From the IMG/VR virus record IMGVR_UViG_3300046506_000102: a stretch of DNA of 64,000 nt. One strand, 5' to 3'. The position numbers were made by a program, and so were the translations under genes. Position 1 is the stretch's first letter. Every line of letters starts with the position of its first letter. The stretch is from an uncultured virus (IMG/VR IMGVR_UViG_3300046506_000102) (Duplodnaviria; Heunggongvirae; Uroviricota; Caudoviricetes). The notes beneath the pieces were generated by a model. That model saw only the letters and a program-made list of their open reading frames with translations. It was not told the origin of the DNA and ran no database searches. Shown piece after piece: positions 3,386 to 61,608 of this stretch.

Positions 3386-4330
3386 ATGCGAACAGAGACA
3401 ATCGATAGAGTGACCGTGGCACTGAAACGCGCGGAAGCCGATAGCCTCGAATTGATCGCAACACGTCTGCGGCAAGAGGCATCCGAACTTGAACACAAGC
3501 TGTTCATTCAAGTGATCGGCCGCGCACCGCGTAGCCCTCGCCCCGCGTAGAGCGCTCGCCATGGTGAAGATCATAGACCGAGACGACCGGATAATGATCT
3601 TCAACGGGAATACGGTGCTTGGGTACGTTGAAGATAGTCGATTGTATGGATTTGATCCGGACAATTACGCCGTTGAAATCTGTACAATCGACAACCGAAA
3701 TGAAATCGCAACGAGGTTTGCGGAATGGCAAGAGAGACGTTAGCCAACCTGCGCGGCAAGCCTCGGTATTGGAAGAAAGGTGAACTTTATTGGTTCGCCG
3801 ACCAACTGGTTACGATGGCTTACGCTGTGACCACCGATCAGGCCAAGGTCGGCACGATCGGAATTGTGAACGATACGTTCGTTGAATTTCTCAGTGAAGG
3901 GCAACGCGCATTTTGGGACGCGGCATGTCAACGCCAGAGCTAGAACTTGACGAACGTTTCTTCGAAGTGATCGCGCGAAATGAAACTTCCGCGATCACAA
4001 AACATCGCACAACAGGAACGTTAGGAGTTTGGAAACTAGAATGGCGGGATAGAGGCAGCTATCCGCCCGGCTTTGAAAGCAACGCATGGGCGGCATTTCT
4101 AAAGGCGTAACTTAGCGGTTAGATGGGCGAACCGTGCTTCAATCGTCCCAATTAACGGGGAAACTATGGCGAAGATAATGAACAAAGAACAATACCGCGA
4201 AGCGGGACAATCGCACGTGAAACATATGCGCGAATTGTTGAGGGATCACGGCGACAACGCGAAGTTAGAACTCCACGCCGATCATATGCGCGCGTTGATC
4301 GCGTTGCTTTCGGCGGCTTCAAACAAGTGA
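3386..4330 (+). other. Cluster of small hypothetical genes (3386-3550, 3561-3743, 3725-3943, ~3925-4110, ~4166-4330)
   Basis: Closely packed plus-strand ORFs ending at a convergent hairpin. Confidence 0.5.
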
Positions 4331-4641: not shown

Positions 4642-5037
4642 TCATAACTGCCGTATGATAGACTGAATGGCTTTTTCATCGGTTACAAACCCTGCATATC
4701 CGCCTGCCTCACGCACAATAGCGTGAAACTTCGCTTGCGCGTTCGCGCGTTCGTCACTCGGAGTTTGTCTCCACCCCGTTGGCTTAATTTCCAACGCGGT
4801 AAACACACCAAGCTTAACCCACGCATTAGCACTGGCTAACCACGCTGTCACCGGGGTTATTCCAATAAGATCGCTTGACTTTATTTCAGCGTTAAGCGCA
4901 GCACTATCATTCCCCAACCCATAGCGAATCAACCGGCCCGTGTCATCGAAACAAGCACCGCTGTTATTGCGCCACATCGGGCCGATGTTAGCGAACGCTA
5001 ACCGTGTCCGTTGTTGTACGACTGTTTCACTGCTCAT
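4642..5037 (-). CDS. VRR-NUC nuclease (putative Holliday junction resolvase)
   Basis: WRNNSG...RYGL...SSDLIG...ALEIK PD-(D/E)xK pattern. Confidence 0.8.
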   Translation of the reverse strand: MSSETVVQQRTRLAFANIGPMWRNNSGACFDDTGRLIRYGLGNDSAALNAEIKSSDLIGITPVTAWLASANAWVKLGVFTALEIKPTGWRQTPSDERANAQAKFHAIVREAGGYAGFVTDEKAIQSIIRQL

Positions 5038-5107
5038 TTCGCGCGCATCCAATTGCAACATTTGTTACTTACATGAACCTGACGACGGAACTTGACACTT
5101 GTAAAGA

Positions 5108-17032: not shown

Positions 17033-18100
17033 TCAGTTAATCTTTCCGCGCTGATAATCCGCGACGGTCGCCGACTTCGACTTGTTGACTTGATACGCAG
17101 TCACGACCGCGATTGCCGCGACAATGCCGAACCACGCGAAGCCGGGCACCGCACCGAACCAATCCGAAACCATGTCTTTGTAGGGCGCAACCGCGTCATG
17201 CGTATCGGGAAGCAATTTCAACGCACCGCCACCGACCGCAGCCGCGCCGCTGAACCATCCGGTAATCCGGCTGATCAATGACGCATTCTTGGCCGGGGGA
17301 AGCGACGCGAGCGAGCCCGCAAGATCGTCTTCGGTCTTGAACGCGCGAGCCGGTGCAATCGGCCGGTGCCAGCCTTCCGCGTCGGCTGCGACGATCGCGG
17401 GCGCGAGTGCGCTTGACGGATACGTGGCCGGGCTATCAATGCCGCGATCGGTGAAGAACGTTTTGATTGCGCCCAACGTCTTCCCGCCGATCCTGCCATC
17501 AGCCTCGCCAACTTCGTGGTAGCCGAAGCCGATCAAAGCCGCCTGATAGCTGCGCAGCGTTTCATCAACGCGGGCGGTTGGCGTTGCGACAACGGGCGCG
17601 GCAGTCATCGGCGGCGGATTGTTCGCGAACACACGGCGCTGTGCTTCGATCCAATCGGCATCCGCAGCGGGGTAAGTTTGCCCGGCTTCGTGACCAGCCT
17701 GCGCTTTGAGGAACGCAATTCCCATCGGCGAATTCCAAAACGCGTCATCCATGACGGTGTTTTCGGTCAGGCCGGGAACGCGCGCTTTGCAGTATGCGAT
17801 ATAAGACGCGGTGTTGTTACCACCGTCCCAAATCGCGATTGCATCCTTGAATTTCTTGTTTCTGTAGTGATCGGACGTGCGCCACATTTCGAGTTGCGCG
17901 CAAATGCCCTGCATGAACGACGGGAAATAGGCGATGTTATTGCCTTGGTTCAAACCGTCGTTGAGATATTCGGTTTGGACGCTGCCCCACTTCACCGCAA
18001 GCTTGTTCGTTGTCGGCGCGAACTTGTCGGATGACTTGCGTTTGCCGCTAATTCCCCACATTGCGCCGGGGTTTTTCGAGCGAATAGATGCGACGGTCAT
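17033..18100 (-). CDS. Putative endolysin (lysozyme-like domain, peptidoglycan-binding domain, C-terminal TM segments)
   Basis: IRSKNPGAMW...HEAG N-domain; YQAALIGFGY..DGRIGGKTLGAIKTF PG_binding_1-like; hydrophobic C-terminus. Confidence 0.7.
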   Translation of the reverse strand: MTVASIRSKNPGAMWGISGKRKSSDKFAPTTNKLAVKWGSVQTEYLNDGLNQGNNIAYFPSFMQGICAQLEMWRTSDHYRNKKFKDAIAIWDGGNNTASYIAYCKARVPGLTENTVMDDAFWNSPMGIAFLKAQAGHEAGQTYPAADADWIEAQRRVFANNPPPMTAAPVVATPTARVDETLRSYQAALIGFGYHEVGEADGRIGGKTLGAIKTFFTDRGIDSPATYPSSALAPAIVAADAEGWHRPIAPARAFKTEDDLAGSLASLPPAKNASLISRITGWFSGAAAVGGGALKLLPDTHDAVAPYKDMVSDWFGAVPGFAWFGIVAAIAVVTAYQVNKSKSATVADYQRGKIN

Positions 18101-43119: not shown

Positions 43120-43198
43120 TGGATAGAATTAAGACAAAGGGCCGGGCGGTACTTCCGCGCCCGGCCCCAATCGTCACGCAACCGCCAGTGGCAAGTTA

Positions 43199-44443
43199 CT
43201 AACCGAGAAGGCCCGCGATATGTTCCGGCTTGATCGCCTTCACACCCCATGCCTGCGCCACTTCCGCGCGGATTTTCCGATAACCGGCATAGATGGCGAC
43301 TTCGAACACCATGCCCGAACGCGGATCGGTGATGTTGATCCGGTCAATGGCAAGATCGCCTTCGTTCGGCAGCGCGGGCGCACGGGCCACAAGCCGCAAA
43401 GCGTTCGGCGAAAACGCGGTGCTGCCGACATGCGCGGCAACCACGGTGATGGCGGTTGCAGATGCCGGGATAGCCACGCGCAAGCCCGGTGCGTTCAGCG
43501 TGATCGAACCGCCCGCCGCCGCGCTGGCGAGACCACCACCGGGGGCAACCGTATACACGTTGTTGTCACCCGCGAACTTGATCGAAGTACCGGCCGGAAT
43601 GGTGCCGGAACCCGCCGCCGCGATCGGAATAACGGTGGTGCCCTTCGCGAAGCCCGCTGCGGTGGTGGTGGAGCCCGCTGCGGTGCCTGCGCCGATCAAC
43701 GGGACGCCAGCGCTTTCCTTGATGTTCAGGCCGGCAAGGTTGATCAGGGTACCATCGGTCAGAACCATCTGCGTTCCGGCTTCGTTGGCCTTGGTCAGAT
43801 TGGTCAACGAACGGAGATTTGCGCCCGCAGTGGTGTCAACAATGAGCGCACGGCCGGTCAGCGGTGCGCCGTTGTCGTCAAGGATTTTGCGAACCTGCGC
43901 AGCATCACCAACGGTGCTTGCAAACGGCGTGGTGCCAGCGGTACCCCACCAACGCGACACGTTCGCGGCGGCTTCGGCGGCAAGATCAACTTCGATTGCG
44001 TTCGTCAGCGTGCGGAGTGCCTGCGCGAACAAATCCGCCTGCACCGACAGATAGCCCGAACCGGTGTTCAACCCGCGCTGTTCTTCACCAGTGAAGCCGA
44101 ACGGGACGGCCTTGGATTTGGTAATCGAGATCGTGCCGTTGCCGATGGTGTTATCCGGGGGTTCCGGAATGCTCATTGCGGGCGTGACATCCACCATGCC
44201 TTGCTGCGGCGTGACGAAATACACGATCGATTGACCGACCGCCGCGCGTTCTGCGGAAACGTCGCGAACAACGGAGGGAATGTAGCCGACCAACTCACGC
44301 GAAACCACGTCAAGGCCCGCGTAAAGGTCGGGGATCAGCCGGGTTAGCGTGTTGGCGTAAGCCGCCATGTGAACGATGGCCGGGGCAGAGATCAGCGCCG
44401 ACGCAGTGAGCAGCGACGGCTTAATAAGAGACTTCGCGCGCAT
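43199..44443 (-). CDS. Major capsid protein (P22 coat-like) with N-terminal leader
   Basis: ANTLTRLIPDLYAGLDVVSRELVG...WGVKAIKPEH; SD AGGAG 9 nt before ATG 44443. Confidence 0.9.
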   Translation of the reverse strand: MRAKSLIKPSLLTASALISAPAIVHMAAYANTLTRLIPDLYAGLDVVSRELVGYIPSVVRDVSAERAAVGQSIVYFVTPQQGMVDVTPAMSIPEPPDNTIGNGTISITKSKAVPFGFTGEEQRGLNTGSGYLSVQADLFAQALRTLTNAIEVDLAAEAAANVSRWWGTAGTTPFASTVGDAAQVRKILDDNGAPLTGRALIVDTTAGANLRSLTNLTKANEAGTQMVLTDGTLINLAGLNIKESAGVPLIGAGTAAGSTTTAAGFAKGTTVIPIAAAGSGTIPAGTSIKFAGDNNVYTVAPGGGLASAAAGGSITLNAPGLRVAIPASATAITVVAAHVGSTAFSPNALRLVARAPALPNEGDLAIDRINITDPRSGMVFEVAIYAGYRKIRAEVAQAWGVKAIKPEHIAGLLG

Positions 44444-44689
44444 GTTGCAACGCTCCTAATCAGATGATGTTTCGGGATTGGTCTAAGTGCATCATCCGAT
44501 GCGAAACGCCGCATTGCCATCCGGTCTAGCGACTAGTTGCAATCGGTAAACGTGTTCGCGTTTTTGGTCAAGCGCTGATGATAGCTCAAAACGTAAAGGG
44601 CGCGCAGTTTCCCCCATCAAAAAGAACTGCGCGCCCTCCGATCAAGTCGAGTTGCCAGCGACGAACAACCCGACGATGGTTGTTAGTGG

Positions 44690-45541
44690 TCAATCAACGA
44701 TAGTCACGACACCCTTAGCCATTTCGCCCGCAATGCGCGCCTGTTCATGGCCCGGCATTTTGTCGTATTCAGCGCGAGCAACGGTGCGCCCGCCGCCGCG
44801 ATTGCCACCGTTGCCGCCACCGCCGCCGCCGCTGTTGTTGTTCGCCTTCAAGATGACGGCTTTCTGCGGATGCTGATCCACAAGAATTTCCAGCGCTTCG
44901 GCCGCATCTGCAACTTGGCCGGTGTTCTTTTTGCTGAAAATACGGTTTCCGCTCTTGTCGAAAGCTTCAACTCGCCCATCATCCGCAACCTTCAAATTGT
45001 TGCGAAAGTAGGCTTGGAACATATCGAGCGGCATAGCGATGTTTTCGCGAACGAATTCCGATTGACTGAAAACGTTGTCAATTCGCAAATCGTTCAGCGA
45101 AGATTTCAGCGTGCCGTTTTCCTTCGACAACGTTTCGATCTGTCCGCTGAATTGCGCCTTGATATCGTTCGTCACGCGATCGACTTCGCCCGCATCGATC
45201 AGCTTTTTCTTGTCAAGCTTATCGGTGATTTCGAGCGAGGCCCGCGCCTTGGCCGGATCGATGCCCTCGAAAGTCGCAAGCGTTGCTTCGGCCTTTTCGG
45301 CGCGCTCGCGGTGCTGCTTCGCTTCGCCGTTGATGCGCGTGATGGCGTCGGAATTCAACGTTCCTTCGCTGCCGTCCGCGTTGATCCAAATCGGGTTGCC
45401 ATCCTTCAACTGAATGGCCTTGCCGTCTTCGGTCAGCTTCCAACCGGCCTTACCGGGATCGAACACACGCAAATGAAGCCCGGCCATGTGAGCCGAAAGA
45501 AGCTTGGTTGCGATCGAATTGAAGATAACTGCTTTGGTCAT
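44690..45541 (-). CDS. Capsid scaffolding protein
   Basis: DGNPI..., LNSDAITRINGEAKQHRE, KLIDAGEVD, EALEILV, Gly-rich C-terminus; SD AAAGGA before ATG 45541. Confidence 0.85.
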   Translation of the reverse strand: MTKAVIFNSIATKLLSAHMAGLHLRVFDPGKAGWKLTEDGKAIQLKDGNPIWINADGSEGTLNSDAITRINGEAKQHRERAEKAEATLATFEGIDPAKARASLEITDKLDKKKLIDAGEVDRVTNDIKAQFSGQIETLSKENGTLKSSLNDLRIDNVFSQSEFVRENIAMPLDMFQAYFRNNLKVADDGRVEAFDKSGNRIFSKKNTGQVADAAEALEILVDQHPQKAVILKANNNSGGGGGGNGGNRGGGRTVARAEYDKMPGHEQARIAGEMAKGVVTIVD

Positions 45542-45618
45542 TGTCGCTTTTCCTTTGGTCATCCGACCATTGCGCCGCTTGCTATCCTGCTCACGACTGG
45601 TTGAGTTTACGCACGTAG

Positions 45619-45774
45619 TTACAAAACACCGGATCGCTGCACCTTCTTGATTTCCTCAAGAATGCGCTTGTTCAGGACATCGTTCGCGCCCTGCAATTTC
45701 AGAATGGTTGATTTCATTTCCGCGACATCGCGTTCAAGCGCTTCGATGCGGCGACGATTTTCAATGTCAGACAT
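45619..45774 (-). CDS. Small coiled-coil protein
   Basis: RIEALERDVAEMK; overlaps the portal stop. Confidence 0.5.
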   Translation of the reverse strand: MSDIENRRRIEALERDVAEMKSTILKLQGANDVLNKRILEEIKKVQRSGVL

Positions 45775-47482
45775 TTGCAGGGATTTGCTTTCGCGGTTGC
45801 GGTTTCTTCGGGTTGTTGGGCGGATTGCCGCCCGTATCGTCTGCGGCGTTCGGATCAACGGTGTCATCCGGGGTTTCTTCGAGCAACTGCCGTTTGTTCT
45901 CGTCTTCGTCCATATCCGGACGCACGGTATTGCGGCGCTTCAATTCGATGATGTAGTTTTCATGGCTCAAATCGCCGTTCGTGCGTGCGAACTGCAATGC
46001 GCTGTGATCGCTTGCTTGATCCGTGGTGAAATCGTCGAAGTCGTCATAGATATGTACGACGGGTTCGAAATCAGTTGTCTTTAGGTTCATCCAAAGACAG
46101 GTAAGCTTCATTGCGTTTTCAAGCGCTTCCTTTAACCCAACTGCCCACCAACCAACGGCCGAACGCGTCTTGCCTGCCGCATACGCAGTTGTGACAACGG
46201 TAAGGTTGCCGGATTGCGCGGTCAGCGGTTGCCGCCCAAGATCGCGAACAACGTCCTGCGTTTCTTTAATGTCGTCCTTTAGCCAACGCAGGTTTTCAGC
46301 GGGCGGAACGACATAATCCCAATGCCCGATTTTGCCGGTTGCGTCCGGTTCGGAATACAAGACGACGTTCGGGCCAACAGCGAGTTGCAGCGGTTTTCCG
46401 TCCGGTCCTTTTTGCGGCTTAACACCGTTCGCCGCGAGCATGGGATATGCGGACATCAACCGCGCGAATTTCAGCCCGCTTTCTTTCTGATACAACTCGA
46501 TTTGCGCATCAGCGGCAGCAAGCATCGGTTTCGAGAAACGCCACGTGCGCCCGTTGCGGCGACCGGTCGTGAACGGCACAAGCGGAATAACGCCGATCGA
46601 AATTGGCGCGCTATCAACCATGATGAACGTTTTGGTTTTGCCGTCTGCTTCAAGTTTTTCTTCGAATAGCGCCATCATCACCGAACCGTCGTCGGTGCGC
46701 TCGAAAACGCGAATGTGGTTCGGCGTACCCGGTTCAAGGATGCGCAACCGAACAAGCGTTTCCTTGCTGTTGATGATCTTGGACGTAGCTTCAAGCACGT
46801 TGCGGCCAAGCACGTGTGACCAAAACGGACGAATGTTTTGGTCTTTCTGATCTTGCTGCGTACGAACACGCGACGGATCAACCTTCGGGTAATCGACGTA
46901 AATCCAATCGATCGCGGAATTGATGCCGTTGAAAAACGTCACCGCACCGAATGACGACAAGCAATTCCCTGCCCCGTCAACATCCTTCGCAAATTCTTCA
47001 ATGTCGGGCGGCAGCGGAACCGGGTTGCCGGTTGCTTTGTCTTTGTCCTGTTGAAGTGTGATTGGTTCCTCAAACGGTTTGCCCGCGAGCATTTCAACAA
47101 CGTCACCATAGACGTTTGTCATTTCGGTTTGCAGCAAACGCGCGTTGTAATTGTCGGTCGGTTCGTTCGCAAATCGCGGCAAATACTTATCGCCGCGCCC
47201 TTTGACTGCGGTGTAACCTTCAATCAAATCGTCGGTCAAATCCCAATACGGAAGCATGTAAGCGCTATCTAAATTGCGAGCGCTCAAGTCTTCCTGCGTT
47301 GAACTGACCGTGACGATTTCCTGATTTGCTGCCCTTCGCGCCGCATCCATCAATGCGGAAATCAAGCCGGTGTTAACGCGACCGGGAGGGGCAGGCGGAA
47401 ACGAGTTGGGCAACGTACCGGGATCGAATGCGCGAATGCGAATTGCGTTCTTTGCGACGGTCGAAAGCATGTGATGGCGCAT
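45767..47482 (-). CDS. Portal protein (DUF4055-like)
   Basis: KYLPRF..E...YNARL; between terL and scaffold. Confidence 0.88.
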   Translation of the reverse strand: MRHHMLSTVAKNAIRIRAFDPGTLPNSFPPAPPGRVNTGLISALMDAARRAANQEIVTVSSTQEDLSARNLDSAYMLPYWDLTDDLIEGYTAVKGRGDKYLPRFANEPTDNYNARLLQTEMTNVYGDVVEMLAGKPFEEPITLQQDKDKATGNPVPLPPDIEEFAKDVDGAGNCLSSFGAVTFFNGINSAIDWIYVDYPKVDPSRVRTQQDQKDQNIRPFWSHVLGRNVLEATSKIINSKETLVRLRILEPGTPNHIRVFERTDDGSVMMALFEEKLEADGKTKTFIMVDSAPISIGVIPLVPFTTGRRNGRTWRFSKPMLAAADAQIELYQKESGLKFARLMSAYPMLAANGVKPQKGPDGKPLQLAVGPNVVLYSEPDATGKIGHWDYVVPPAENLRWLKDDIKETQDVVRDLGRQPLTAQSGNLTVVTTAYAAGKTRSAVGWWAVGLKEALENAMKLTCLWMNLKTTDFEPVVHIYDDFDDFTTDQASDHSALQFARTNGDLSHENYIIELKRRNTVRPDMDEDENKRQLLEETPDDTVDPNAADDTGGNPPNNPKKPQPRKQIPANV

Positions 47483-47486
47483 GATA

Positions 47487-47663
47487 TTATCCACTGATGA
47501 TTTCGACGTTGCCGCGAATAGTTCTGATCTTGTTGTGTTTCAAATACTCAACAACGCCTTGAACATCGTCCGCGATCGTTACGTTTCTGATCACTTGACC
47601 ATCAACTTTCACGATCGGGTTTTCAAATCCGCGCGGCTTGATTTCGTCCCAAACAATCCGCAT
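47487..47663 (-). CDS. Small hypothetical protein
   Basis: Fills the terL-portal gap. Confidence 0.5.
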   Translation of the reverse strand: MRIVWDEIKPRGFENPIVKVDGQVIRNVTIADDVQGVVEYLKHNKIRTIRGNVEIISG

Positions 47664-47667
47664 CGCC

Positions 47668-49470
47668 CTACATTCCATACCGCCCAAGCATCGGCGCAAA
47701 ATCGTCACGAACCGGAAAGTACATCATTACACCAGCGTCCGCTAGGTTCGGCGACTTTGTACCATCAGGTTTTTTATCAACAACCATCCGAAGGGACGCG
47801 CCCGGCCCGTGTGTAGGCTGCGCTAGCTCTTTCATAAGCTGTTGCAACAGAGGCATGTTGCCATCTAGCGATATGAAATCATCGATCGGATAAAGCACAC
47901 CTTCCGTGATGTTCTTCCACGTCTTATAGAAACGTGTTCGCAATGACCACCACGCTTGCGCTTTGAAGTTATGAAAAAAGTCTTTGTTGAGCGCGGATTG
48001 TTCATCATCGGGAATTAGACGCGCATACGGATCAACAACCGCTGCACCGGCATTCCAGCCAACGAACGGTAGGCTTTCAGGATCAATACCGCTCGCACGA
48101 TCGCCAGAATTAAACACATCAACTAGGCGATTGTATTCCGACTTGACGGCAGAACCTACGCCGATTTCATCGTACTGAACTTTGATCAAGCGATGATTGC
48201 GGCAACTCGCAATGGCGCGACGCGTTGTAACGCCCGGATCGCGTTCGCCCCATTCTTCGACATGACGCCAGATGATGCTTTGCCGCTTCGCAAACGCGTT
48301 GCGATCGATACCGCCGTCAGCAACGTCCAAGCCAGCAACCCAATTATCACCGATCAGGTAATCAGGAATACCGGTGATGATTGAACCGTCTTTGAACTGC
48401 CAACGTATCTTTAGATGCGCGTCAACCGCCGCAGCAATCCATTCATATGGAATGATCGTATTCGAAACCGCAGCACTATAGTTACGGTCAACCTCTTGCG
48501 CGAATAGATGCTGCAACCCTTCGCGTTCGGCCTTGGCTTTACGCTGTGCGTACCAAGCCGGGGTCTTCTCCGGATGATCCTTATAATCAAAGATGAAAAC
48601 GCGCGTATGGCCCGGTTGCAGGTTGATCGCACCCGGACGCCAGTCAATGCCCGCCTCGCGCCGACGATGGAAGACGTTGCCCAAACCGTTGACGGAGGAA
48701 ATATCAATCTGAACGTTGGTGTTATCCTCTAGCGCGGCCTGCACCATTTCCGGATGCGTATAATGGGCGCTTTCGTCTTTGAAATAGACGCGCGTTCGCC
48801 CGCCTCGCCCGATGCTATCGCCAATTTCACCCGATATCACCGAACCGTTTTCCGGGTTGATCATCTTCATAAACGTCAGATGATCGCGGACGCTTAGGCC
48901 CTTCGGTTTCCAAATGTCGGGCAAACGACGAACAAGCAACCGCATCTTTTCGAAGATGGATGATGGATCGCCGATCTTATCGACCAACTCTTGCTTGCGA
49001 CTTCCCCAACCAATCGAGTCATTCGGGATGAACAACCACGAATGAACGCTATAACCGCAACACGCCCATGTTGCGCCCATGTCGCGGCACTTCTCAGTTA
49101 GACCGCTTTCAGCATCGCGCGTGCATTCTTGCAGGAAGTCAATGAACTCGGCTTGCCGCTTGAAGAAAACAAACGGTATCCACTTTGAACCTTTGCGACG
49201 CGGGTCATAAGTATCCATCCAATGCATGATGAATTCTTTGGGCCGCTTGCGATAATACGCCTTCGCACTCGCGAGCAATGCGGGGTTCGATCGCAACTTG
49301 TGCAATTGCTGCAAACGCCACGCATAAACAGCCTTGTAATTCGGGGGCCATTGTTCACGCGTCAAAAATTCCGGTTTCCACGGCTTAACGCTATCGGATA
49401 GCCCGAAAGCGCGCCAACCGATCACGTCCGCGTTTGGCGTGGAATAGCTCTTGACCATCGCAATATTCAT
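47668..49470 (-). CDS. terL: Terminase large subunit
   Basis: KCRDMGATW (Walker A-like), GRGGR..FKDESAH (Walker B), GLDVADGG.D and SPNLADA nuclease motifs; start may be 49458. Confidence 0.92.
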   Translation of the reverse strand: MNIAMVKSYSTPNADVIGWRAFGLSDSVKPWKPEFLTREQWPPNYKAVYAWRLQQLHKLRSNPALLASAKAYYRKRPKEFIMHWMDTYDPRRKGSKWIPFVFFKRQAEFIDFLQECTRDAESGLTEKCRDMGATWACCGYSVHSWLFIPNDSIGWGSRKQELVDKIGDPSSIFEKMRLLVRRLPDIWKPKGLSVRDHLTFMKMINPENGSVISGEIGDSIGRGGRTRVYFKDESAHYTHPEMVQAALEDNTNVQIDISSVNGLGNVFHRRREAGIDWRPGAINLQPGHTRVFIFDYKDHPEKTPAWYAQRKAKAEREGLQHLFAQEVDRNYSAAVSNTIIPYEWIAAAVDAHLKIRWQFKDGSIITGIPDYLIGDNWVAGLDVADGGIDRNAFAKRQSIIWRHVEEWGERDPGVTTRRAIASCRNHRLIKVQYDEIGVGSAVKSEYNRLVDVFNSGDRASGIDPESLPFVGWNAGAAVVDPYARLIPDDEQSALNKDFFHNFKAQAWWSLRTRFYKTWKNITEGVLYPIDDFISLDGNMPLLQQLMKELAQPTHGPGASLRMVVDKKPDGTKSPNLADAGVMMYFPVRDDFAPMLGRYGM

Positions 49471-56998: not shown

Positions 56999-57622
56999 CT
57001 AACCCCCAATCTCACGTGCATAAAGCGCCGCCGCCGCATCTTCGTCGATACCATTCGGCAACATCGTGGCTTGTGACGGCTGAACCGACTGCTCTTGTTT
57101 GAGCCAATGCGCGTTGTTGTCAGTCAACAATCCCTGATAGCGCATCATATTGCCAAGCGCGGCCAACTTGTCATGCAACGTGAACTTGATCTTTTTGCCA
57201 CCGCGCGGCTTTTCTTCGATCTCGATAGACTTGACCGCTTCCATCATTTCAGGCGTGCAATTAGCGAAATCGGGTTCGGGTTCGCCCCACTCGTTGATTT
57301 TGACGTAATTGCTGATGTTCGAATACGCGATGACGGCGTTTGCCTTCAACGTCCGCATAATCGAAATATCGTACAGTTCCGATAGCTCTTTCACCCGTTC
57401 AGCAATCGCAGCGCGGACCATGGGGCGCGCAAGCATCGCAACGGCCCGCTGATCCAATTCCCAAGGGAACGGCTGCTGTAGGACCGCTAGAAGCCGTTGG
57501 CCGGTCTTTTCCGCGATGCCCTCGATATCCTTCACATACCCGTCAACGAACTTCCGTTCCCATTGGTCGATTTGACCATAGGCCGGGCGGAAATCCATCG
57601 GTGGCGTAATCGGCGCAAGCAT
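56999..57622 (-). CDS. terS: Terminase small subunit
   Basis: RKFVDGYV...LARPMVRAAI...IAYSNI...KFTLHDKLAAL Terminase_2-like pattern. Confidence 0.8.
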   Translation of the reverse strand: MLAPITPPMDFRPAYGQIDQWERKFVDGYVKDIEGIAEKTGQRLLAVLQQPFPWELDQRAVAMLARPMVRAAIAERVKELSELYDISIMRTLKANAVIAYSNISNYVKINEWGEPEPDFANCTPEMMEAVKSIEIEEKPRGGKKIKFTLHDKLAALGNMMRYQGLLTDNNAHWLKQEQSVQPSQATMLPNGIDEDAAAALYAREIGG

Positions 57623-61470: not shown

Positions 61471-61556
61471 GGTTCGGAGTGGTTTCCTTGGCTACACCGG
61501 GCGTTTCCTCCCTTAGACTTTCAACCCCGCGCACCCCAATGCGCGGGGTTTTTTTT
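61471..61556 (+). ncRNA. Putative trans-acting sRNA with anti-SD motif (AbcR/BjrC1505-like)
   Basis: -35 TTGACC at 61437 with 17-nt spacer, 5' hairpin, unpaired GCGTTTCCTCCCT, strong terminator, no internal ORF. Confidence 0.6.
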
Positions 61557-61608
61557 ATCTGTAACAAGCATCCCGAACGGATTGTAACAATCCGTGATGC
61601 ACCATCGC

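Follow-up and report, generated by a model that had tools for sequence, protein, structure and literature searches.

The window analysed here is the whole stretch of 64,000 nucleotides from an uncultured Caudoviricetes virus (IMG/VR record IMGVR_UViG_3300046506_000102), and the genes, leaders, terminator-like hairpins and promoter-like site described below all lie on its minus strand. A scaffold protein gene of 283 aa (44690..45541; Pfam DUF6651, 2.1e-25; PHROG 784, 1e-67; PHROG 206 'head scaffolding protein', 2e-22) is followed by the major capsid (coat) gene, which is P22-coat-like and encodes 414 aa (43199..44443; PHROG 283 'major head protein', 7.9e-86; 66.7% identical to the major head protein of P106B). 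Between the portal and scaffold genes lies a small ORF of 51 aa (45619..45774) that gave no Pfam or PHROG family over threshold. A similar ORF is readable in the related locus L008 and is absent in P106B, where the leader directly follows the portal gene. A terminator-like hairpin follows the scaffold gene (44589..44636), consisting of a 12-bp GC-rich stem and then UUUACGUUU, and a strong terminator-like hairpin with a U tail, recognised from the sequence, follows the coat gene (43131..43168). Between the former and the coat leader there is a promoter-like site (44543..44571), with TTGACC at 44566-44571, a 17 nt spacer and a poor -10, TACCGA, at 44543-44548. A simple promoter and terminator scan lists neither this site nor the post-scaffold hairpin, the latter because its loop is too long. 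Loci L006, L004 and L008 have hairpins in the same position as the post-scaffold hairpin.

Both head genes are preceded by an element of about 50 nt that carries hairpins with GGAU loops. The scaffold-leader copy (45554..45602; covariance model R1, 46.5 bits, E 1.5e-09) has a basal stem in which GUCGU (45593-45597) pairs with GCGGC (45574-45578) below the apical loop AGGAUA (45583-45588), and a second hairpin, UGGUC-GGAU-GACCA (45556-45569, loop 45561-45564). In the coat-leader copy (44487..44538; 39.7 bits, E 6.3e-08 with the same model), GUCGC (44529-44533) pairs with GCGGC (44508-44512) around a first GGAU loop (44519-44522), and the second hairpin is GCAUC-GGAU-GAUGC (44489-44502, loop 44494-44497). 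Each copy thus runs from a basal stem with an apical GGAU hairpin, through a GCGC(A) linker, to a second hairpin with a YGGAUG tetraloop. These are the sole strong model matches in the window; a third, weak match (17245-17272; 15.2 bits, E 0.045) falls within a long ORF and was taken as chance.

The two leader sequences and their shared fold, a GUCGY/GCGGC stem with a GGAU loop followed by a second GGAU hairpin, had been pointed out in a preliminary description of this DNA. A script check places both sequences on the minus strand where they had been reported, and the fold is reproduced when each element is folded alone (-15.4 and -15.1 kcal/mol). Local alignment of the two leaders gives a score of 27, against 15.2 +/- 2.2 for mononucleotide shuffles, of which 2/1000 reach 27; local alignment was used for this comparison, as MAFFT on the whole leaders misaligned them. 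The 64 kb contain exactly two copies of the 14-nt head CAACYAGTCGNNAG, and the 9 other matches to it carry 2 mismatches each. The thermodynamic z-scores of the two elements are weak (-1.9 and -0.5), so a single sequence is insufficient as proof of structure, and the proof is comparative.

Covariance model searches of 167 related loci gave 90 matches in 67 of them, all 90 on the gene strand. Carriers include the Rhizobium phages P106B and X2_24 (two strong matches each), E. coli phage HK639 (one strong match), a Klebsiella phage and Caulobacter phage DMCA, and the hosts span Rhizobium, Sinorhizobium, Caulobacter, E. coli and Klebsiella. A weak match inside the head morphogenesis gene of X2_24 was taken as chance. 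Of about 5209 candidates in the host MAG, 150 were scored, and among these the two prophage copies alone matched the model. Across the carriers, the first hairpin stands on a basal stem of the form UGCC.../...GGCG and is followed by the GCGC(A) linker and the second hairpin; many scaffold leaders have a third GGAU hairpin, and every hairpin of the array shows the tetraloop GGAU with a C-G or U-G closing pair.

In an alignment of 66 instances, 89.9% of cells are paired vs 70.5% in shuffles, and the covariation score is 0.571 vs 0.237 shuffled (reached by 0/500 shuffles; slid controls at most 0.141). Most rows were chosen by a filter for at least 3 bp around GGAT (52/66) or by eye (12 more), which biases the inner three pairs of both hairpins. 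The outer hairpin pairs and the basal stem are outside this selection, and the basal stem is 82.8% paired with 8 CG-to-UA changes. G-U pairs occur at the closing positions in 14/66 and 20/66 instances and in the basal stem in 40/66; these would be A-C mismatches on the opposite strand, supporting an RNA structure of the sense strand. The loops are fixed while the stems covary: CGGATG or TGGATG makes up 55/66 first loops and 58/66 second loops, and there is almost no variation in the U after GGA or in the closing G. The spacing between GGAU loops is 21-27 nt (22-24 nt in 56/66). The compensatory change first noticed between the two second stems of the window, UGGUC/GACCA vs GCAUC/GAUGC, is therefore real, as these stems covary in related phages.

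In an unbiased census that covered both strands of 165 distinct loci (1.07 Mb) and counted each of the 256 tetraloops, GGAT on the gene strand was the commonest hairpin loop, with 254 hairpins vs a mean of 77 (sd 35) per tetraloop, and 81 on the other strand. Relative to the coat start, these GGAT hairpins are concentrated at -200..0 and -1200..-600. The two elements of the window are copies of one undescribed cis-acting RNA, a GGAU-hairpin array, and the early proposal of a sense-strand RNA common to the scaffold and coat leaders is borne out by its retention in many relatives.

The array matches no family of Rfam 15. At gathering score, the whole window yields only suhB/mmgR at 61478-61563; with E up to 10, positions 44400-45700 yield a chance miRNA row alone. 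Twelve related loci yield 0 matches. Full-text literature searches found no description of the element. The supplement of a published survey (PMC10690425) lists a candidate structured RNA, DNAVirus_7287, of 103 nt and 48 sequences, which lies at most 25 bp upstream of 14 P22_CoatProtein genes. Judged by these supplement rows, it differs from the GGAU array in that 48/48 of its sequences come from human-associated samples and in being flagged as a terminator. Because many related phages keep the element and no RNA catalogue lists it, it probably acts as a hitherto undescribed switch that governs how much head protein the phage produces.

The placement of the array differs between the two genes. 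In the scaffold leader, whose element lies 16 nt beyond the stop codon of the 51-aa ORF, the SD AAGGAAAA (45548-45555) and the ATG (45539-45541; together 45539..45555) come directly after the second hairpin, which ends at 45556, so that this hairpin abuts the SD just as the preliminary description had it. A mechanical ORF list starts the scaffold 7 codons earlier, at an AUG in the GGAUG loop at 45562, a start without an SD. The last GGAU hairpin ends at most 7 nt before the start codon in 24/42 distinct scaffold leaders, and 23 of these 24 have no other SD-like tract and a GGA-to-AUG spacing of 6-12 nt. In 14/42 it ends 8-20 nt before the start (14 nt in the window), with an SD always directly behind it. 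Thus in 38/42 scaffold leaders the last hairpin is within 20 nt of the start codon and contains or adjoins the ribosome-binding site, as in operator-type elements, a placement that fits translational control. An alternative pairing of UGGUC with GACCA of scaffold codons 2-3 was considered and dropped, as it is not kept in L006.

In 35/36 coat leaders, over 20 nt separate the element from the start codon downstream of it, and 29/36 have a separate SD-like tract. A promoter of the form TTGACN-N16-18-TAnnnn ends 3-15 nt before the basal stem in 18/37 coat leaders vs 0.4 expected from shuffles; the same promoter precedes the basal stem in 0/41 scaffold leaders, 23/41 of which follow a T-run. The promoter-like site of the window itself fails the criteria that those 18 relatives satisfy; transcription from it is predicted to start at about 44536-44540, just ahead of the basal stem. 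In the SD region of the window's coat gene (44441..44469), a segment CAUCAUCUGAU (44459-44469) precedes the SD AGGAG (44453-44457) and the ATG (44441-44443). The complement of this segment, AUCGGAUGAUG, lies in the second hairpin of the coat leader, so that an alternative long hairpin can form that also pairs the GGA of the SD.

The full coat leader has an MFE of -36.9 kcal/mol (z -2.41). The interaction energy of the alternative hairpin is -12.8 kcal/mol relative to the element and downstream sequence folded apart, compared with -4.0 +/- 3.0 when the downstream sequence is shuffled, and 1/100 shuffles reach -12.8. An 11-nt duplex covers the GGAU loop (p 0.002). The two arms of the alternative hairpin are identical in the window, L006 and L004 and the intervening loop has diverged, although these three sequences are not independent of each other. 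Among relatives, 11/33 coat leaders have z < -2, and a contiguous duplex covering a GGAU loop is significant (p <= 0.01) in 5/33. A loop-covering antisense segment was therefore rejected as a universal feature of coat leaders, since it holds for a minority only; the competing hairpin is clear in about a third.

The reading that we tentatively prefer, at somewhat less than an even chance, is that the element is a translational operator array recognised by a trans-acting reader protein, possibly the scaffold. We infer the existence of this reader, its identity and the direction of its control. Most simply, it would be a dimeric or oligomeric protein that recognises the fixed GGAU loops. Since the last hairpin of the scaffold message covers or adjoins the ribosome-binding site, a reader bound there would block initiation, which would amount to negative control. 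In the coat message, whose 5' UTR starts with the element, the second hairpin of the element is in competition with the longer hairpin that buries the SD. A bound reader would here keep the message open, which would amount to positive control. The carriers infect both alphaproteobacterial and enterobacterial hosts, and to judge from this distribution such a reader would not be host-specific. The array would resemble the coat operators of MS2, Qbeta and PP7 and the gene 32, regA and gene 43 operators of T4, which combine a marginal hairpin carrying the ribosome-binding site with a fixed loop and a free stem. In those systems a structural or abundant phage protein represses translation, and by analogy the same may hold here. 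Unlike them, the element is an array of two to three identical loops on a basal stem, and it is found on two (sometimes three) messages of dsDNA phages.

An alternative with a modest share of the probability is that there is no protein reader and that the array, on its own, serves the most abundant virion proteins as a structural and translational enhancer. The weak SD-like GGA(U)G loops would then be a landing pad for the 30S subunit, the last loop would serve as the SD, the structured 5' end would protect the message, and ribosome loading would prevent the inhibitory hairpin or terminator from forming. The genes marked by the element encode high-copy structural proteins: besides scaffold and coat, a further copy precedes the major tail protein gene, behind its own promoter, in L082 and L044/L045. 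These tail-gene copies are more easily reconciled with a general label for abundant late proteins than with the balancing of scaffold against coat that was first suggested. The 23 scaffold leaders that have no SD-like sequence apart from the last GGAU loop, which stands at SD spacing, also agree with an enhancer, as do the coat and tail copies that start at the predicted transcript start, and the universal anti-SD would explain how one element works in both alpha- and gammaproteobacterial hosts. However, GGAG pairs with the anti-SD at the 16S 3' end better than GGAU does, and the near-invariance of the U and of the closing G is not what an enhancer predicts. A loop of 4 nt, moreover, leaves little room for pairing, and the fixed loop spacing, conserved basal stem and linker would be superfluous for a landing pad.

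The preliminary description had also linked the loops to the host regulator CsrA/RsmA. If the hairpins were sites for it or for a functional analogue, head-protein synthesis would be tied to host physiology. The layout is suggestive: CsrA-repressed leaders typically have GGA in hairpin loops at spaced sites, one of them on the SD, and the array has several such loops 21-27 nt apart with one overlapping the SD. As in glgC and hcnA, there are at least two sites a few helical turns apart, and the GGAUG core is also the core of the CsrA SELEX consensus. E. coli and Klebsiella, which are hosts of some carriers, have CsrA, and the E. coli control for PF02599 was positive. Against this, PF02599 matches neither the complete P106B and X2_24 genomes nor two partial viral records, G001 and G003, gives sub-threshold hits only (E >= 0.42) in the MAG G002 that holds the related prophage L004, and is found in 0/31 relatives of this MAG vs 40/201 genomes sampled from its class; the latter figure indicates that the search is able to see CsrA. 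Furthermore, CsrA sites favour an A two bases before GGA, which is not conserved in the element, where a covarying base of the stem occupies this position. The element also differs from CsrA leaders in having a tetraloop instead of a hexaloop and in lying in a phage head module rather than in genes of a host regulon. CsrA itself was thus rejected as the reader for this host group, its link to these phages finds no support, and the wider idea of a CsrA-like host regulator appears improbable.

Similarly improbable is an antiterminator acting at the level of transcription, either attenuation-like (as in the two-hairpin ANTAR and BglG systems) or modifying RNA polymerase in the manner of nut and put RNAs, which would allow readthrough of the terminators flanking the scaffold and coat genes. 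Terminator-like hairpins do follow both genes in the window, coat copies come directly after promoters, and in the coat or tail leaders of L044, L046/L052, L082 (twice) and L130 a long hairpin ending in a U-run uses the 3' arm of the basal stem as its own 5' arm. The lambda and P22 nut boxB hairpins, read by N, and the put RNAs of HK022 and HK639 are likewise short fixed-loop hairpins found twice per genome, downstream of promoters and near terminators. However, the alternative coat hairpin of the window has no U-run and covers the SD instead, and scaffold copies lie just after rather than before a terminator (23/41) and end within 20 nt of the start codon in 38/42. The element has no boxA-like partner, and no N-like gene is common to its carriers. 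The annotated putL-like RNA of HK639 contains no GGAU hairpin, and HK639 has a Q-like antiterminator. With the T-run placement and the lack of an Rfam match, this sets the element apart from nut (boxA-boxB) and put RNAs, and identity with a put-like RNA was rejected.

It is very unlikely that the element is a small riboswitch whose two GGAU loops are docked by a ligand or ion, as are the two ACGR loops of the tandem hairpins in guanidine-II (mini-ykkC): the element does share with guanidine-II, and in part with ANTAR sites, a plan of tandem small hairpins with free, covarying stems, fixed tetraloops at a fixed spacing, an adjoining SD and an overlapping off-state helix, such as the one present in the coat leader of the window, but its loop sequence and size differ (GGAU, not ACGR), GGAU loops are unable to form mutual Watson-Crick kissing pairs, no Rfam riboswitch family, mini-ykkC included, was matched with E up to 10, and the regulated structural genes suggest no ligand.

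Within the preferred reading of a protein-read operator array, an autogenous circuit with free scaffold as the reader would be favoured, since the proteins detectably common to the window's phage and HK639 are the portal, scaffold and coat, plus a weak tape-measure match only. On the coat tree, 48 loci have both the motif and this scaffold family, 66 have neither, 6 have the scaffold only and 3 the motif only. This association is partly trivial, because one copy of the element is physically joined to the scaffold gene, and it is not significant over the 7 independent pairs in the tree, of which 3-4 agree in direction and 0 are opposed (p about 0.125-0.25).

Free scaffold of P22 reportedly controls scaffold synthesis post-transcriptionally. 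To our knowledge, this is the only classical case of scaffold autoregulation, and it never yielded an operator. The phage studied here resembles P22 in having a head module with a P22-like coat, and the function proposed would be the same post-transcriptional control by free scaffold, but its scaffold belongs to another family (DUF6651). P22 itself was rejected as a carrier, as no leader precedes its gene 8 (13 nt) or gene 5 (an overlap) and the model matched nothing in the first 9 kb of its genome. Thus, the P22 operator, if there is one, is not a GGAU element.

A bolder form of the proposal, which we consider rather unlikely, is that the scaffold of this phage group is a sequence-specific RNA-binding protein that uses a YGGAUG code to shut off its own translation and open the coat (and in some phages the tail-tube) message, so that the pool of unassembled scaffold would set the amounts of the head-building proteins. 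If so, the head module would contain an assembly-coupled translational circuit that is independent of the host. How the scaffold:coat ratio is set in tailed phages is largely unknown, and the element offers a compact, easily mutated RNA signal. Since it lies on the scaffold ribosome-binding site and at the start of the coat message, and since cultivable phages with laboratory hosts carry it (HK639 of E. coli, P106B of Rhizobium gallicum and DMCA of Caulobacter), its role is directly testable. A true operator or switch would also be a portable part for tuning expression, and would explain the mis-annotated small ORFs over such leaders, such as P106B_07 and P106B_08.

The AlphaFold model of the scaffold has a mean pLDDT of 74.8 and a pTM of 0.38. 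Compared with solved folds, it has no match at E <= 0.001, the best rows being noise, so nothing here marks the scaffold as RNA-binding. The most conserved block of the protein, I(S/T)RLNGEAKxHRERAE, is basic and helical.

The head genes of the window lie on the minus strand: large terminase (47668-49470), portal (DUF4055; 45767-47494), a 51-aa ORF (45619-45774), scaffold (DUF6651; PHROG 784 and 206; 44690-45541) and a P22-like coat protein (PHROG 283; 43199-44443). The small terminase (Terminase_2; 56999-57622) is about 7.5 kb from the large terminase. Collinearity with Rhizobium phage vB_RglS_P106B extends from base 1 to about 49.5 kb (primase, helicase, Gp2.5-like SSB, DNA polymerase, tail and head genes), and the DNA beyond is phage-like too; the window is a Rigallicvirus-like phage or prophage.

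An RNA element of about 50 nt precedes the scaffold (45554-45602) and coat (44487-44538) genes. Both leader strings of the preliminary description were found in place by a scripted coordinate check, which also covered stem, loop, SD and start-codon coordinates, and folding each copy recovered the GUCGY/GCGGC stem and two GGAU hairpins claimed there. The leaders resemble each other (local alignment score 27, versus 15.2 +/- 2.2 shuffled; reached in 2/1000 shuffles), and the 14-nt sequence heading the repeat is found without mismatch in the window only in these two places. Single-sequence thermodynamics are weak (z -1.9 and -0.5 for the two copies), thus the case for structure rests on comparison with relatives.

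The element precedes the scaffold and coat genes in P106B, Rhizobium phage RHph_X2_24, viral contigs L006 and L008, and L004, a prophage within a proteobacterial MAG. Further loci, 80 viral and 80 metagenomic, were gathered with a coat-protein profile. An unbiased census of every hairpin with a 4-nt loop and a stem of at least 4 bp covered 165 distinct loci (1.07 Mb). Of the 512 loop-by-strand classes, gene-strand GGAT was the most frequent, with 254 hairpins versus a class mean of 77 (sd 35) and 81 on the opposite strand. Their positions cluster at -200..0 and -1200..-600 relative to the coat start, which correspond to the two leaders.

An alignment of 66 instances has three helices with 89.9% of cells paired, although it is a biased sample (2 window rows, 52 that passed a filter for 3 or more bp around GGAT, and another 12 picked by eye) in which only the basal stem and outer hairpin pairs are bias-free. 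The compensatory change first noticed between the two window leaders extends to homologs: covariation in these 66 rows, most of them selected on pairing, is 0.571, versus 0.237 shuffled (0/500 as high) and at most 0.141 in slid controls. The basal stem, which was not selected for, is 82.8% paired, with CG replaced by UA in 8 rows, and RNAalifold independently gives the core of the same three helices. The first loop is CGGAUG or UGGAUG in 55 of the 66 rows and the second in 58; the GGA-to-GGA distance is 21-27 nt (22-24 nt in 56/66).

A covariance model of the element (R1), a search that the preliminary description had suggested, gives two strong matches in the window (46.5 and 39.7 bits). The complete P106B and X2_24 genomes contain exactly two apiece, HK639 has one, and the first 9 kb of P22 has none. 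Among the related loci there are 90 matches in 67 of 167 loci, some of which are copies of one contig; 13 matches are at sites outside the seed, and 90/90 are on the gene strand. G-U pairs are common at fixed positions in the alignment and would be A-C mismatches on the other strand; together with the sense-strand bias this argues that the element acts as RNA, not DNA. Among the named carriers, Klebsiella phage ST405-OXA48phi1.3 has the element in both leaders and Caulobacter phage DMCA in the coat leader; E. coli phage HK639 is another. A weak half-match at 17245-17272 on the minus strand (basal stem and one CGGAUG hairpin; 15.2 bits, E 0.045), within a long ORF, is probably due to chance.

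The Rfam comparison also proposed at the outset, made with Rfam 15 on the window and related loci, matched the element to no family, and a full-text literature search found no description of it. A 2023 catalogue of viral structured RNAs (PMC10690425) has a candidate, DNAVirus_7287, upstream of 14 P22_CoatProtein genes, which may overlap with the element. The RNA element is real, widespread and uncatalogued, and very likely acts post-transcriptionally to control the synthesis of head proteins.

Scaffold and coat copies differ regularly in placement. In 24 of 42 distinct scaffold leaders the last hairpin ends at most 7 nt from the start codon, and in 23 of them no second purine-rich tract is present, so that the loop GGA occupies the place of the SD, 6-12 nt before the AUG. 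Another 14 have 8-20 nt between hairpin and start codon, with an SD immediately after the hairpin; these include the window, where the second hairpin had been described as abutting the SD. A promoter-like site is found in front of 0/41 scaffold leaders, and 23/41 have a T-run, as in a terminator-hairpin tail, directly before the element. In coat leaders, by contrast, the element is more than 20 nt upstream of the start in 35 of 36 distinct cases, 29 of the 36 have their own SD-like tract near the start, and a TTGACN-N16-18-TAnnnn site has its end 3-15 nt before the basal stem in 18/37 (0.4 expected). The element would thus form the extreme 5' end of the coat message in those phages. The corresponding site in the window (TTGACC-N17-TACCGA, 44543-44571, minus strand) has a poor -10 and fails the criteria used for the relatives; it is preceded by a terminator-like hairpin (44589-44636, minus strand). 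A third copy, following its own TTGACA-type promoter, is found before the major tail protein gene (PHROG 158) in two cases (L082:8080-8131; L044:5642-5690, equal to L045:8545-8593), the L044 copy having its first loop decayed to GAAA. These copies count against a strict scaffold/coat logic.

In the window coat leader, CAUCAUCUGAU at 44459-44469, which ends one base before the coat SD AGGAG, is complementary to AUCGGAUGAUG, formed by the loop and 3' arm of the second hairpin. Folded in full, the leader adopts a long hairpin in which GGA of this SD is paired as well; at -36.9 kcal/mol (z -2.41) this fold is 12.8 kcal/mol better than the element and downstream part folded apart (shuffled-downstream control -4.0 +/- 3.0; 1/100 shuffles reaches the window value). 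Both arms are invariant in the window, L006 and L004, with no compensatory change to prove pairing, and the intervening 20 nt differ at many positions. For 33 coat leaders z averages -1.24 and is below -2 in 11. A contiguous duplex over a whole GGAU loop is significant (p <= 0.01) in 5/33 (Fisher 0.001), three of which, the window, L006 and L004, are mutually related. The competing hairpin of L044, L046/L052, L082 and L130 resembles an attenuator: it is built on the 3' arm of the basal stem and has a U-run at its end. Thus, a switch is genuinely present in the window and in a sizeable minority of the relatives, not in all of them.

We infer both the reader of the element and the sign of control, and the most economical guess for the reader is scaffold. 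Alpha- and gammaproteobacteria are the hosts of the carriers, which are otherwise unrelated; the window phage and lambdoid HK639 have nothing in common but portal, scaffold and coat, plus a weak tape-measure match. With so few common proteins, a phage-encoded reader would be portal, scaffold or coat; otherwise the reader would be something universal, such as the ribosome. Free scaffold would repress its own ribosome-binding site (negative autoregulation) and the same protein would open the coat message, balancing scaffold and coat synthesis. Scaffold autoregulation is known in P22, which has no leader before its scaffold and coat genes. The predicted scaffold structure has no match among solved folds and gives no sign of RNA binding, and on the coat tree motif and scaffold family show only a trend towards joint occurrence.

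CsrA/RsmA, initially proposed from the GGA loops, fails as a lead for this host group: PF02599 has no match in P106B, X2_24 or two partial viral records (G001 and G003), only E >= 0.42 in the host MAG (G002), and CsrA is found in 0/31 of its relatives, the same search being positive in 40/201 genomes of that class and in E. coli and B. subtilis controls. In working principle, CsrA-type leaders and the hairpin operators of RNA-phage coat proteins and of T4 autogenous repressors are closest to the element, and its layout recalls that of ANTAR two-hairpin sites and the guanidine-II riboswitch. It is not a member of any of these classes, given the absence of an Rfam match, a host group without CsrA in the genomes searched, and differing loops. 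HK639 putL shows no likeness to it.

The AUG in the GGAUG loop of the window scaffold leader (45560-45562, minus strand) lies 7 codons ahead of the scaffold start in the same reading frame, so a mechanical ORF call gives 290 aa rather than 283. The same in-frame AUG is seen in L024, L029, L031, L032 and L019, and not in L022 or L077. In the alphaproteobacterial clade, scaffold and coat resemble each other in having a hydrophobic extension of some 20-30 residues at the N-terminus (45470-45541 and 44350-44443, minus strand; also L059, L048, L014, L008 and others), which may be a shared propeptide or targeting arm; enterobacterial relatives (MKLKL... and MANTLT... starts) are without it. The best-kept block in the scaffold family alignment is I(S/T)RLNGEAKxHRERAE (45370-45420, minus strand), basic and helical, near the N-terminal beta domain. 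Small reverse-strand genes sit between scaffold and coat in P106B and X2_24. The annotated small ORFs P106B_07 and P106B_08 overlie the promoter and structured coat leader (L001, the P106B locus, 3762-4008; record 4856-5102), and are probably not real genes. Finally, the plus strand at 61478-61563 matches Rfam suhB/mmgR with 43.2 bits (gathering score 41), a match that P106B, X2_24, G001 and G003 did not give. A TTGACC promoter-like site lies upstream of the match, and at its end is a GC hairpin with a U-run. It is surrounded by otherwise phage-like DNA, and may be a phage-borne copy of an alphaproteobacterial anti-SD sRNA; alternatively, the window may run into host DNA at this point.
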